Shown in pieces: positions 390 through 8,741 of a stretch of DNA of 64,000 bases. The notes under the pieces were generated by a model. That model was not told where the DNA came from. It saw nothing but the letters and a program-made list of their open reading frames with translations, and ran no database searches. The stretch is taken from positions 896,001 through 960,000 of the forward strand of contig CP182352.1 of assembly GCA_048571215.1 (NCBI GenBank). Reading direction: 5' to 3'. Position numbers and translations under genes: made by a program. Position 1 is the stretch's first letter, and every line of letters starts with the position of its first letter. This DNA is from Halarcobacter sp. GTDB lineage: Bacteria; Campylobacterota; Campylobacteria; Campylobacterales; Arcobacteraceae.

Positions 390-499
390 CCTTATTTAAG
401 GACTTTGCCGTTGTTTTGATATACGACATTTTTTATGTATGTTATTTGTTGATTTTCAGGGTGTTTTATATATAATGTATGTTCAATAAATAGTTGTTC
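390..499 (+). promoter_or_regulatory. attI site and adjacent integron platform (crossover G/TT at 493-494)
   Basis: First GTT core of the array (GTTGTTC 493-499) matches the R'' GAACAAC (519-525) of the first attC. It is preceded by TTTATATATAATGTATGTTCAATAAATA, with a TATAAT at 471-476. Confidence 0.8.
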
Positions 500-680
500 G
501 TTCCCGCTTCGCGTGAACGAACAACGGCGGTGCTGACCACTGAACGTGTCACCCGTCATTTGTCATTCTTCGCTTCGCTACGAACAACAAATGACAGGAG
601 ACACACACTAAGCCATCTTCCAGAAAACACTCCGTGATTTCTGAAATATGACTGAGTGGTGCTCAGCACCGCCGTTATAT
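493..680 (+). mobile_element. Cassette 1: ORF-less cassette (33-bp hairpin plus long branched attC 519-680)
   Basis: GTTGTTCGTTC-CCGCTTCGCGT-GAACGAACAAC, then AACGGCGGTGCTGA...TCAGCACCGCCGTT (14-bp perfect inverted repeat). Near-identical copy at 2384-2571. Confidence 0.85.
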
Positions 681-695
681 TAAGGAAGATAAAAG

Positions 696-1439
696 ATGAA
701 CCCACCAAGAGTATTTATTTCATATTCACATGACTCAGCAGAACATAAACAATGGATATTGGATTTTGCTACAACATTAAGAAACAGAGGAGTTGATGCA
801 GTTTTAGATCAATGGGATTTAAAACCAGGGGATGACCTACCTCATTTTATGGAAACTCAACTTAGTGAAGCTCAATTTATAATAATGGTATGCACAAAAG
901 AGTATGTTGAAAAAGCAAATGCAGGTAAAGGTGGAGTAGGATATGAAAAAATGATAATGACATCTTCTTTACTTTCAAAAATTGATAGTAGTAAAGTAAT
1001 ACCTATAATTCGACAAACTGGAACTGATTTACGACCTACTTTTTTAAGTTCAAAACTTTATATCAATTTTTCAAAAGATAGTGAACTTGAATATAGTTTA
1101 GATGATTTGCTTCGTGTACTTCTAAATGCTCCATTATATGAAAAACCAGAAATTGGATTAAATCATTTTAAACCACTAGAAGGTTCTCGTCCTGATCGTA
1201 TATCAGATGGATTAAAAGAACTTATGAAAGCTGTAGCTTCATCTTATGAAGGAACAGCACATAAATACATTTGGTTTAAAAAGGTTGTATCTACAGTATC
1301 TATGCATAGGCTTACTTTAGATAGATATTTAAAAAAGGCAATAAATGATGGACTTATTAAATGGCACACTTCTGATACTATAATGATTACAGATAAAGGA
1401 CTAGACTATCTAGTTTCACATAGTATTATAGAAGAATAA
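696..1439 (+). CDS. Cassette 2: TIR/SEFIR-domain protein with probable C-terminal winged helix
   Basis: VFISYSHDS...W...F...L...GVD..LDQWDL.PG motif; GVGYE carries the conserved Glu; ITDKGLDYL is wHTH-like. Bounded by GTTATAT (674) and ATATAAC (1441). Confidence 0.88.
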   Translation: MNPPRVFISYSHDSAEHKQWILDFATTLRNRGVDAVLDQWDLKPGDDLPHFMETQLSEAQFIIMVCTKEYVEKANAGKGGVGYEKMIMTSSLLSKIDSSKVIPIIRQTGTDLRPTFLSSKLYINFSKDSELEYSLDDLLRVLLNAPLYEKPEIGLNHFKPLEGSRPDRISDGLKELMKAVASSYEGTAHKYIWFKKVVSTVSMHRLTLDRYLKKAINDGLIKWHTSDTIMITDKGLDYLVSHSIIEE

Positions 1440-1440
1440 A

Positions 1441-1574
1441 ATATAACAAATTGGAGGAGAGAAACGAGGCTATACTACGGAAATTTCAAGCTTTTAAGTG
1501 TCGCGTAAAGAAACTTGAAATCTGAATAATTAAGTACGAAATATCGCCATCGTTCCTCACCTCAGTCGTTATAA
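1441..1574 (+). repeat. attC site (long family)
   Basis: ATATAAC...GTTATAA with internal imperfect inverted repeat (GAGGAGAGAAACGA/TCGTTCCTCACCTC); closely similar to 2256-2390. Confidence 0.88.
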
Positions 1575-1626
1575 TGGTTTAAAATATTAGTGAGTTAGTA
1601 TTTTAAAGAAGTAAAGAAGGTAAAAT

Positions 1627-2241
1627 ATGGATTTAAAAACATTAAATTTTCCAGAACTTATAAGATATTTTGTTACAGGATTTAATTTTTTAGTATTAGT
1701 AGTCAGTCCTATAGTAATAAGTAAAGATTATGGAATTTTTATTGAACTAAATAAAAGTATTTCTTCTATTGTAATTATTACAAGTGCTTTCATAATTGGA
1801 TTTATAATAGATCAAATGAAAATTTATCAATTTATTATTGGATATAGTACAATAAAAAAAGAATTTCGAAACAAAATTCAAGAAGCTCTAAATATTGAAA
1901 ATAAATTTATTAATACATATTTTTCATATATTACAAATTATGCCAAAAAATATAGTTTTTATAATTTGGAAAAAAAACGTGCCGAATGGATATTGGCAAT
2001 TAATACAAGCATTATGCTTATTTTTACCATTATATTTTGGTTCATTTTATACTTATTTGATTTTTTAAATGATATTAATTTTTATATATTTATTATATAT
2101 CCAATTATTGCTTTAAAATTATATTTTACTGCAAAAGAAGAATTAATTAAAAGCAATAAAGAATTTTTATTATTTTGTGAAAAAAATAAACAAAATATTT
2201 TAGATTCAATTGAACTAAAAGAAAAACAAAAGGTTGACTAA
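1627..2241 (+). CDS. Cassette 3: hypothetical membrane protein (about 4 TM)
   Basis: 204-aa ORF with hydrophobic segments, bounded by GTTATAA (1568) and TTATAAC (2256). Confidence 0.8.
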   Translation: MDLKTLNFPELIRYFVTGFNFLVLVVSPIVISKDYGIFIELNKSISSIVIITSAFIIGFIIDQMKIYQFIIGYSTIKKEFRNKIQEALNIENKFINTYFSYITNYAKKYSFYNLEKKRAEWILAINTSIMLIFTIIFWFILYLFDFLNDINFYIFIIYPIIALKLYFTAKEELIKSNKEFLLFCEKNKQNILDSIELKEKQKVD

Positions 2242-2255
2242 TTAATCTAATAATA

Positions 2256-2390
2256 TTATAACAAATTGGAGGAGAGAAACGAGGCTATACTACGAAAATT
2301 TTTAAGCTTTTAATTGTCGCATAATGAAACTTGAAAGTTGAACATTTAATTACAAAATATCGCCATCGTTCCTCACCTCAGGCGTTGTTC
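2256..2390 (+). repeat. attC site (long family)
   Basis: TTATAAC...GTTGTTC; paralogous to 1441-1574. Confidence 0.88.
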
Positions 2391-2571
2391 GTTCCCGCTT
2401 CGCGTGAACGAACAACGGCGGTGCTGACCACTGAACGTGTCACCCGTCATTTGTCATTCTTCGCTTCGCTACGAACAACAAATGACAGGAGACACACACT
2501 AAGCCATCTTCCAGAAAACACTCCGTGATTTCTGAAATATGACTGAGTGGTGCTCAGCACCACCGTTATGA
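2384..2571 (+). mobile_element. Cassette 4: second copy of the ORF-less cassette
   Basis: Identical to 493-678 apart from G671 vs A2562. Confidence 0.85.
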
Positions 2572-2577
2572 AGCAGG

Positions 2578-3279
2578 ATGAAATTTATGACCGAAAAGCC
2601 AGATTATTTTGCACGAACAACTGCTGTGATATCACTTGTTTTTGCTATTGTTGCAATGTTAGTTTCGTATTATCAACAAGAATCAGCTCAACAAGTGCAA
2701 AAAGAACAATTTGAAGTCCTCCAAAAAGAAGAACTTATTGTTAAAGTTAATCCATATATTGATGGCTTTATACGATTAACGAATTACAATTTAGGTCACT
2801 TAGGACATGTAGTTCAAATTCCTTGGAAGATTATCATTTCTAATACAGGAAATCAAAAATTATCAATAACTGATTGTTTTGTAACTCGAGGAGATTCTCC
2901 TGAGTCAATACAATATTCAGGGATATATGGTGGAATTATAGATCAAAAATCAAAAACTATTGAATTTCCTCTTATGCTTGATCCAGGAGAAAGTAGAATT
3001 GTATATATTTTTGTTGGTATCACTGTGCCATCATTAGTTTATCAAACATTATTTTCTTTAGATAAGAATACAACACTTACAGATAGATTAGCAATGAAAG
3101 CATTAGGAAAACAGAGAATTGATTATTATGGAAATCCAGTTGAGTATGAAGAGTTTGAGGGTGGTTTATTTCATTTTGTCGTAAAAGACACTAAAAAAGC
3201 TCAACGTTTTTGGATAAAGTTTACAACTGGTAGAGGAAATATATATTATGGTACAGGAATGGCATACAAGTCAATATAA
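2578..3279 (+). CDS. Cassette 5: hypothetical protein with N-terminal membrane anchor
   Basis: 233-aa ORF bounded by GTTATGA (2565) and TCATAAC (3285). Confidence 0.8.
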   Translation: MKFMTEKPDYFARTTAVISLVFAIVAMLVSYYQQESAQQVQKEQFEVLQKEELIVKVNPYIDGFIRLTNYNLGHLGHVVQIPWKIIISNTGNQKLSITDCFVTRGDSPESIQYSGIYGGIIDQKSKTIEFPLMLDPGESRIVYIFVGITVPSLVYQTLFSLDKNTTLTDRLAMKALGKQRIDYYGNPVEYEEFEGGLFHFVVKDTKKAQRFWIKFTTGRGNIYYGTGMAYKSI

Positions 3280-3284
3280 GAAGT

Positions 3285-3415
3285 TCATAACAAATCCTAG
3301 AAGTGAACGAGGGTATACTTGCGATAATTTAAGCTTTAAAGCCTAAAGAAGTTAAAATATAGTTCAAATAGTCAAGTGGTCAGATACCCTCGTCCACTTA
3401 ATTTGACCGTTATAA
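3285..3415 (+). repeat. attC site
   Basis: TCATAAC...GTTATAA with AAGTG-AACGAGGGTAT / ATACCCTCGT-CCACTT inverted repeat. Confidence 0.85.
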
Positions 3416-4485: not shown

Positions 4486-4557
4486 GGATAACAAATAGTT
4501 CAGACTGTGAATTTAGTCCCAAATAAACTAAATTCACAGTAAAAATTCAAATTAACT
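4486..4557 (+). repeat. Degenerate attC-like site or terminator hairpin
   Basis: GGATAACAAAT, then a 14-bp perfect inverted repeat ACTGTGAATTTAGT (4504-4517/4527-4540); ends ATTAACT rather than GTT. Confidence 0.4.
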
Positions 4558-5074
4558 TCCTAAATATCTGATATTTCTTCTTAAATTTTTTAGATATAAA
4601 AATTTTTCTAAAAAAAAAACCAAATAAAGTCCAAACACTAAGATATATTCCTCTATATCTTTTGTAATCTGGGTTAAATCTTTATTTTTTATGGCTAAGC
4701 ATAACTTTTTCTCAAAGATAGTGATACTAAAGCACCGTTTCACTTCACAAGAAACAGATTTGTCCCTATAAGATTTAAAATTATATGTAAATATAATAAG
4801 TGCGTTTTAACTACTCCCTACGAGGTTGAATCTCCATTTTTCTATTTTTCATACAGATAAAAAGGTGCATATTACCTTTATTTACAAAGACAAAAAGATT
4901 TGTGAAATGTTTCAAAAAAGAAGATTGTAATTTAATATTTATACCCTTGTTAGATTGTACTTTATAATACGCTAAATTTATGATATAGTATAAATAAAAT
5001 ATGATAGTTATTAAGATTTAGTTTGCTAATATTACAATCTTTACTAAATTGTATTTTATAAATAGGGGATTAAA

Positions 5075-8689: not shown

Positions 8690-8741
8690 GTTAATTTTAT
8701 ATATTATTTATATATAATATATTACTAATAAATAATTATGC
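8690..8741 (+). promoter_or_regulatory. Degenerate attI-like site
   Basis: TTATTTATATATAATATATTACTAATAAATA-ATTATGC closely matches the minus-strand site ending at 61002; core GTT reads ATT. Confidence 0.55.

Follow-up and report, generated by a model that had tools for sequence, protein, structure and literature searches.

A duplicated 181-bp gene-less cassette with a paired, bulge-less recombination site in a Halarcobacter integron: a candidate selfish element of the host integrase

In a Halarcobacter sp. integron (assembly GCA_048571215.1, contig CP182352.1), a 181-bp cassette that carries no gene is present twice, which raises the question of what such a unit is and how it persists. We examined the window (the whole stretch of 64,000 nucleotides analyzed here, positions 896,001 to 960,000 of the contig, to which coordinates refer unless a contig is named), the rest of the source genome (G000), and relatives of the element in other genomes and in metagenomes. 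We favor, with moderate confidence, the reading that the element is a non-autonomous selfish mini-cassette, whose folded bottom strand would be moved as single-stranded DNA by the host integrase IntI. An earlier, sequence-only reading of this DNA had listed a minimal parasite of IntI among several possibilities, and this is the one that we retain.

The two copies lie on the plus strand at 494-674 (copy 1, from TT to G, delimited by sequence comparison) and 2385-2565 (copy 2), and they are identical over 186 nucleotides (493-678 and 2384-2569) except for one base, G671 versus A2562. The derived state is A2562; G is found in copy 1 and in the copies of two other genomes (G092 and G098). These are the only two copies in the source genome, and their GC content is 51%, compared to 28.5% for the genome. 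Copy 1 sits behind the attI site adjoining a 320-amino-acid integrase gene, while copy 2 sits behind a 124-bp attC that is 90% like the attC preceding it. Because open reading frames (ORFs) across the element are only 50-65 amino acids long and homologues differ by insertions or deletions of 1-2 nucleotides, the element holds no credible gene and we rejected a coding element. The duplication also appears to be real: in run X2, both left flanks lead into the repeat on contigs of their own and both right flanks lead out of it, and the depth of the repeat contig (77.5) exceeds that of the flanks (25-48), such that an assembly artefact is not supported, with the reservation that run X2 is possibly the source of the assembly and hence not independent, and that run X1 is ambiguous at the left junction of copy 2. 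Like an integron cassette, the element has a G|TT crossover at either end and belongs to an array headed by intI and attI. Thus, the sequence-only reading was right to describe a duplicated gene-less cassette, and we conclude from its sequence context that the element behaves as an integron cassette with a non-canonical attC.

How the attC departs from the canonical form is seen in its folding. Hairpin A (493-525) pairs the 5' end of the cassette with its own R'' box, and consists of an invariant GTTG/CAAC and a second GTT/AAC, separated by a covarying triplet. The left arm (526-536), a 6-nucleotide spacer and an L box, is an exact inverted copy of the right arm and has no bulge. Two long hairpins follow, arm B (546-604, bottom strand), with G-T pairs and a GNA triloop on that strand, and arm C (606-658, bottom strand), with a C(GGA)G loop on it. 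The right arm (662-676, plus strand) holds L' (CTCAGC), a 6-nucleotide spacer and the G|TT crossover at 674|675, and its register is that of the right halves of host attC sites. In the consensus fold, a bulge-free stem of about 17 bp leads from AAC to a three-way junction. The 14-bp outer stem, the 33-nucleotide hairpin and the two inner hairpins (arms B and C) named in the sequence-only reading are all present in the source element, and so is the G-T pair that the single variant base (671/2562) forms on the bottom strand. Folding energies are -64.2 kcal/mol for the bottom strand (z -11.8; none of 200 shuffled sequences was as good) and -49.5 kcal/mol for the top strand (z -8.5). The element is therefore strongly folded, as had been claimed, but "almost fully base-paired" was too strong: in the circle, 84% of bottom-strand and 75% of top-strand bases pair.

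When the element is closed into a circle, hairpin A and the outer stem become one duplex with the crossover inside it; in the folding, the crossover lies within a nearly perfect duplex of about 22 bp in a closed, three-armed single-stranded circle. Because the hairpin and the spacer pair and the bottom strand folds better, the excised circle would be a closed three-armed single-stranded DNA without an unpaired spacer or an L-box bulge. The 33-nucleotide hairpin had been taken for the payload of the cassette; the hairpin exists, but in these models it is the clamped R box of the excised circle and not a separate payload. Similarly, the proposal of an outer-stem site without an unpaired spacer was confirmed, and the lack of the L-box bulge has to be added to it.

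This architecture is held throughout the family. Across the 120 distinct full-length sites, which represent 93 sequences, hairpin A has a paired variable triplet in all 120, the terminal base is G in 120 of 120, and the 6-nucleotide spacer is fully paired in 119 (116 with Watson-Crick pairs only). By comparison, none of 62 host attC spacers is fully paired (1-5 of the 6 positions pair), and the usual bulges are seen in these by eye. In an alignment of 40 sequences, 99.3% of 920 core cells pair and 97 cells change on both sides, compared to 32%-54% pairing in slid controls, although the pairing and covariation counts are inflated by the relatedness of the sequences.

The family also distinguishes its strands. 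The bottom strand is the stabler one in 40 of 40 aligned copies (mean -60.8 versus -48.4), and single mismatches in a fold restricted to Watson-Crick pairs are A.C on the top strand in 96 cases and G.T in 2. The loop of arm B is a bottom-strand GNA in 36/40 copies, and that of arm C is C(TT)G or C(GNA)G in 32/40. Loops of the types C(GNA)G and C(TT)G are DNA-specific stable mini-loops. No inverted insertion was found among the 120 full-length sites. These strand-asymmetric features of both inner arms favor the bottom strand and weaken the suggestion that the element acts on the top strand as a non-coding RNA or attenuator; the more specific idea of an attenuator of the downstream TIR gene also lost its footing, because the downstream gene differs from copy to copy and the element thus has no tie to the TIR gene.

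Measured against canonical attC sites, the element agrees in its R boxes, register and strand, and departs in its paired spacer, its want of extrahelical bases and its length. An R'' ending in AAC and an R' starting with GTT are invariant columns in 40 of 40 aligned sequences, and L' lies 6 nucleotides from GTT as in host attC. R'' reads NNNCAAC rather than RYYYAAC, and the attC spans 162 bp (519-680), outside the 57-141 bp given among canonical attC features (PMC5027507). In three relatives (L019, L032 and L080), the first base is the A or T of the target, yet its partner in the hairpin remains C, which an N|TT crossover would predict. The 4-5 unpaired nucleotides that link the arms at the modeled three-way junction may stand in for the distal T of ordinary sites. 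Inside 494-674 we found no sigma-70 consensus match, and only two weak terminator-like matches touch the element; a search of Rfam 15 gave four weak matches, all below the gathering score.

To find where relatives occur, we searched by BLAST and by hairpin pattern, using no covariance model, and distant bodies may thus be missed. BLAST gave matches in 9 of 184 genomes of the host family, one of them spurious (that in G081, which lies inside an ORF that we take to be ftsZ, and which we dropped). The hairpin pattern occurs in 9 of the 184 host-family genomes (none with the reversed pattern as control) and in 9 of 401 genomes of the class. A scan of GTDB species genomes yielded 94 stretches, titled mostly Sulfurimonas, Arcobacter, Halarcobacter, Sulfurospirillum and other Campylobacterota; a few short contigs that are binned as Flavobacteriales, Gracilibacteria or Phycisphaerae and have Campylobacterota-type att sites may be mis-binned. 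At least 136 stretches came from metagenomes, where several contigs of 2-6 kb hold two or three copies, while plasmids, phages and viral contigs gave no match.

Relatives come almost entirely from Campylobacterota and lie, with few exceptions, immediately behind attI-like or attC sites. After four chance rows were dropped (L034, L058, L065 and L109), a script classed 90 distinct genome-derived sites as 42 attI-like, 36 attC, 10 other and 2 unknown; by eye, most of the last 12 are att sites and most of the 10 are attC right ends, two (L082 and L129) are doubtful, and L055 has no evident att site. Among the matches listed, at least 132 metagenome sites comprise 96 attC, 26 attI, 8 other and 2 unknown, and these 132 include no tandem copies. 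Homologues thus lie at att sites rather than mostly outside them, in agreement with the G|TT-bounded cassette of the sequence-only reading. L055 itself is a shortened copy followed by an ORF, presumably transposase-like, and is a possible off-target insertion. The position of copy 1 at attI had been thought to indicate recent mobility, a suggestion not borne out here, as attI-like sites are as numerous as attC (23 versus 15 matches in G000) and many copies lie deep in arrays; for the same reason, we claim no enrichment at the first position. With a conservative finder, only one of the 23 attI-like matches in G000 holds the element, compared to 11 of 30 in five genomes chosen as carriers, and the intI-linked first cassette is an ordinary one in three carriers. 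Eight stretches in the complete genome CP093061.1 (Arcobacter-titled) match, and attI-like sites hold four of these.

The same plan is built from different sequences. A divergent version occurs in several copies behind attC sites in one Deltaproteobacteria metagenome-assembled genome (G566) and is absent from 150 other genomes of that class, and two further unrelated bodies on this plan were found (L032 with L081; L211). Two longer variants (L077, of 231 bp, and L129) have two extra hairpins inserted in arm B.

Several observations point to spread within genomes. Pairs of copies within a genome are at least 95% identical in 11 of 17 cases, compared to a median of 73% between genomes, and the genes downstream of copies are mutually unrelated. 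Between genomes, the copies of G000, G092 and G098 are 98.9%-99.5% identical, with an attI flank that is 85% identical (186/220) between G000 and G098, and the nearest match to one copy in CP093061.1, at 92%, is a copy from Sulfurimonas. Shortened forms, with a length of 47-170 bp, are common; hardly any two of them agree, and in several hairpin A is fused with the ribosome-binding site that comes next. In sequence, this pattern reads as a palindrome that erodes where it stands while full-length copies go on moving. We considered that a recurrent truncation at GGCGAAG might be a second IntI cut and rejected this, because the truncation joins the AAGG of the next ribosome-binding site. Two aberrant copies were also noted. 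In L090 (CP093061.1), the inner part of arm B runs in the opposite orientation to that of every other copy, which points to template switching within the hairpin. L007 (G100:C7:5311-5341) is hairpin A alone, with its arms extended by 8 bp into an inverted copy of the preceding attC end, and may be a leftover of template switching from which the origin of the symmetric left arm can be read.

The element is associated with integrons that carry an integrase. All nine hairpin-pattern carriers in the host family have an intI match, compared to 57 of the 184 genomes overall. The source intI is intact, encodes 320 amino acids and matches VchIntIA (2a3v) with E 2.9e-79, and its Gly151 aligns with D161 of IntI1. 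Gly occupies IntI1 position 161 in 8 of 8 integrases (that of G000 and seven adjacent to elements), none of which has Pro at position 109 (they have E, Q or T), while Gly161 occurs in 29 of 149 diverse IntI. IntI1 with D161G was selected for recombination of bulge-less sites, which improved 10- to 500-fold while deletion dropped about 10-fold (PMC2095811). Gly161 is also clade-wide, in 15 of 17 integrases of the family, mostly of non-carriers; it can thus be a permissive background only and explains nothing by itself, and we rejected a specific co-evolution of Gly161 with the element.

We modeled the effect of the element on its neighbors at 39 sites, retaining those with an empty-site pairing of at least 0.2 (one of them, L031, is actually preceded by attI). 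With the element present, pairing of the upstream attC R box fell from 0.60 to 0.04; it was lower in 39 of 39 models and more than 10-fold lower in 25 of 39, which bears out the earlier suggestion that the hairpin competes with the upstream att site and lends support to the recombination lock proposed with it. The upstream R'' pairs instead with the terminal GTT of the element, with a mean probability of 0.27 across these sites.

These models suggest how a selfish mini-cassette could move. On an exposed bottom strand of the integrated element, hairpin A would take GTT from the upstream attC, and the freed upstream R'' would pair with the element's terminal GTT, so that the strand on its own would adopt the four-way junction through which excision proceeds. 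With this conformer tethered on a single strand, bulge-mediated synapsis may not be needed, to judge from equilibrium folding. One strand exchange by IntI would then release a stable, end-less circle while the other strand keeps its copy; replicative excision and cassette duplication have been proposed for integrons (PMC3458562). The circle would offer a fully duplex, attI-like simple site and could re-insert at other attI-like or attC sites, provided that the integrase of this clade, which has Gly at IntI1 position 161 and lacks Pro at 109, accepts a rigid site without bulges. Copy number would rise by copy-out and paste-in and fall by hairpin-stimulated deletion, and the effects on neighbors (a less excisable upstream cassette, polarity on downstream genes) would be by-products. 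A bolder proposal, which we offer only tentatively and regard as doubtful, is that these elements form a new class: a closed, viroid-sized star of single-stranded DNA that encodes nothing, folds itself into the Holliday-junction intermediate of the integrase, bypasses the bulge-and-spacer code and locks upstream cassettes, with at least four unrelated bodies (two in Campylobacterota, one in the Deltaproteobacteria genome and one on a metagenome contig).

A number of results weigh against a selfish element moved by IntI. One is its geometry, since a paired, bulge-less site nearly kills recombination by IntI1: in attI x attC reactions, a paired spacer costs 27-fold, deletion of the bulges 6-fold, and both together 8.5x10^4-fold, and deletion of the bulges abolishes attC x attC excision (PMC2727003). 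The roughly 10-fold loss of deletion with D161G likewise argues against easy excision. The intI of one carrier (G098) is broken, a carrier found by BLAST only (G115, 85% complete) has no intI match, and the hairpin is present in only 9 of the 57 intI-bearing genomes. In G000 itself there are 2 copies among about 38 candidate att sites, and the contigs of four runs, which drop rare forms, contain no junction that bypasses the element. Hairpin A has a GNA loop on the top strand at 49 of 90 sites and on the bottom one at 15, which weighs against a purely bottom-strand reading, and the mechanism leaves the conservation of arms B and C unexplained. Moreover, perfect palindromes can be maintained by template switching without selection, and the genomes compared are related rather than independent.

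We considered that the element might instead be a regulatory cassette that benefits the host and rarely moves by IntI, either as a lock that stabilizes the upstream cassette and itself or as a polar spacer that damps expression behind Pc. A lock would suit both the sequestered R box of the upstream attC in the folding models and a site geometry that cripples recombination by IntI1, and conservation of the full-length structure across families would fit either role. Copy 1, at attI, would form an untranslated 181-nucleotide leader behind a promoter match, and poorly translated first cassettes are known to lower downstream mRNA, although in the same work attC hairpins had little polar effect (PMC11511950). 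However, selection by the host sits poorly with neighboring genes that are unrelated between copies, with a patchy occurrence (9 of 57 intI genomes) and many truncated copies, and with an element that lacks an internal promoter match and is touched by only two weak terminator-like ones. Thus, we consider a host-beneficial cassette unlikely.

It is also rather unlikely, in our judgment, that a different enzyme directed at att crossovers, for example an HUH nuclease or a Xer-like recombinase of the I2-less type that uses branched sites without bulges, borrows the integron sites. The failure of the element to show two defining attC features would be accounted for in this way, and the invariant second GTT/AAC of hairpin A is unexplained by the rules for IntI1. 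Nevertheless, carriers coincide with intI, and both the N|TT crossover and the 6-nucleotide distance of L' from GTT are as in host attC. Furthermore, none of the six other tyrosine-recombinase ORFs in G000 adjoins any array, a comparison that covers tyrosine recombinases only, and no larger, gene-bearing autonomous form with the same ends was seen within flanks of 1.5 kb.

A neutral passenger, which we think improbable, would be a nearly immobile, degenerate cassette that arose once by inverted duplication of the right half of an attC, spread with whole arrays and stayed palindromic through template switching. The left arm is indeed an exact inverted copy of the right arm, an inversion of the template-switch kind is seen in L090, and the laboratory data predict very low recombination. 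Against this, near-identical copies stand between different neighbors within one genome, 93 distinct full-length sequences hold a length of about 180-188 bp, the 96:2 strand bias is not expected from template switching, and at least three unrelated bodies share the architecture. Finally, we find it most improbable that the cassette carries a structured non-coding RNA, for which an antisense orientation to the array would be the likeliest: covariation is strong, the bottom strand also folds better as RNA (-108 versus -84 kcal/mol) and a small-RNA cassette is described for Xanthomonas, but the loops of arms B and C are of the DNA-specific kind, the helices close across the crossover in a manner relevant only to a DNA circle, and no Rfam family reaches its gathering score. 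A selfish mini-cassette thus remains our preferred reading.

The two copies lie in an intact integron. The window begins inside intI, the 5' part of which lies at 1-201 on the minus strand (the whole gene, G000:C1:895239-896201, extends upstream of the window and adjoins the gene for GMP synthase). The integrase reads KSIEPTMIY before the helix of the catalytic tyrosine, where VchIntIA has DVKTTQIY, and the proline, judged from this alignment, may affect activity. A Pc-like promoter match, TTGATT-16-TATAAT (449-476, plus strand; 10 of 12 consensus positions, by consensus only), stands just upstream of the attI crossover, and copy 1 would be transcribed from this predicted promoter as a 5' leader. 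The attI-like site itself (471-495, plus strand; crossover G493|T494) is a motif match, and the motif also precedes first cassettes at the intI-linked site in 16 related genomes. Five cassettes follow, all on the plus strand, of which the first and fourth are the gene-less unit. Cassette 2 (696-1574) carries a TIR/SEFIR-domain gene (696-1439, 247 amino acids; Pfam TIR_2, E 6.6e-21), a possible anti-phage gene directly behind copy 1, and an ordinary attC (approximately 1442-1574, crossover 1568). Cassette 3 (1627-2384) has a 204-amino-acid ORF (1627-2241) without a Pfam match and an ordinary attC (approximately 2257-2384), whose crossover holds copy 2. Cassette 5 (2578-3415) has a 233-amino-acid ORF (2578-3279), also without a Pfam match, and an attC-like site (approximately 3286-3415) that was missed by the finder and read by eye.

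We noted other integron features in the source genome. About 20 attI-like modules lack an integrase gene and have a TATAAT box 17 bp before the crossover (for example, window 8713-8737, which is C1:904735, and C1:963110, 966922, 1465089-1472890, 1711229-1720192, 1803472-1809967 and 1938566-1940122). They head short arrays and recur within arrays, and in several families at least 250 bp upstream are homologous among the modules (67%-98%); from these sequences, it seems that one integrase serves many promoter-attI platforms in G000, for which the attI-type cassettes of PMC12901181 are a point of comparison. A conserved "half site" that follows cassette genes at window 4487-4570, at five other places in G000 and at L007 begins with a TAAC like an attC left end and continues with an AT-rich hairpin and a long conserved tract, after which the array ends; no GTT right end was found for it, and it may be a terminal, non-recombining module. 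Five identical stretches 762 bp apart at G000:C1:3227521-3230569 are chance matches to the attI pattern, and this tandem repeat probably lies inside a large repetitive gene.

An attC site is generally considered to depend on its unpaired spacer and bulged bases, yet this natural family lacks both and has spread, keeping a strict orientation across several Campylobacterota families. It makes testable how IntI chooses a strand and stops after one exchange without spacer or bulges, and whether integrons have non-coding parasites of their own. The element could freeze or silence cassettes in arrays, including the TIR-domain gene, it offers a compact, orientation-specific substrate for recombination, and it may be missed by attC finders that rely on canonical geometry. 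Searches of the open-access literature turned up no description of the family, although the lists of Xanthomonas and Vibrionaceae cassettes could bear on novelty; the accessible parts of PMC10295459 and PMC8618304 make no mention of such an element.

With canonical attC sites and cassettes (attCaadA7 and VCR; PMC2727003; PMC5027507), the element shares the AAC/GTT R boxes, the G|TT crossover, an L' 6 nucleotides from GTT, the bottom-strand bias, a VCR-like branched terminal structure and a single orientation in arrays. It differs in having no unpaired central spacer and no L'' bulge, in a length of 162 bp, in carrying no gene, and in a body that is a hairpin clamping the R box. Gene-less cassettes are known: those tested in Vibrionaceae bear promoters and measure 491-666 bp (bioRxiv 2023.11.21.568050), and according to a review gene-less cassettes carry a classical attC (PMC8876359). 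The element resembles those of Vibrionaceae and Treponema in being non-coding and in occupying chromosomal arrays, but it has 181 bp, no promoter match and a non-classical site. The "empty" cassette of Xanthomonas (bioRxiv 2025.06.18.660453), for which promoter activity has been suggested, is likewise gene-less and occurs several times per array; compared by description only, it possibly shares the architecture.

As a selfish exploiter of cassette recombination sites, the element would have company in the IS1111-attC elements and the group IIC-attC introns. Both encode their own enzyme and insert inside the attC stem. In contrast, the present element has no coding capacity, sits at the crossover and also occupies attI. 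It has been suggested that the DUF1874 motif, with multiple stems in consecutive intergenic regions, could be a complex single-stranded attC, and such a multistem attC would be rare (PMC5737381); no integrase was found next to that motif, and no Rfam match ties it to the element. Parallels also come from the laboratory. The host integrase shares Gly161 with the IntI1 mutant D161G, while position 109 is E, Q or T rather than the Leu of the mutant P109L (PMC2095811), and the element is the natural, paired-spacer and bulge-less counterpart of the VCR mutants mut20 and mut21, of which mut20 is almost dead with IntI1 (PMC2727003), whereas the family of the element is widespread.

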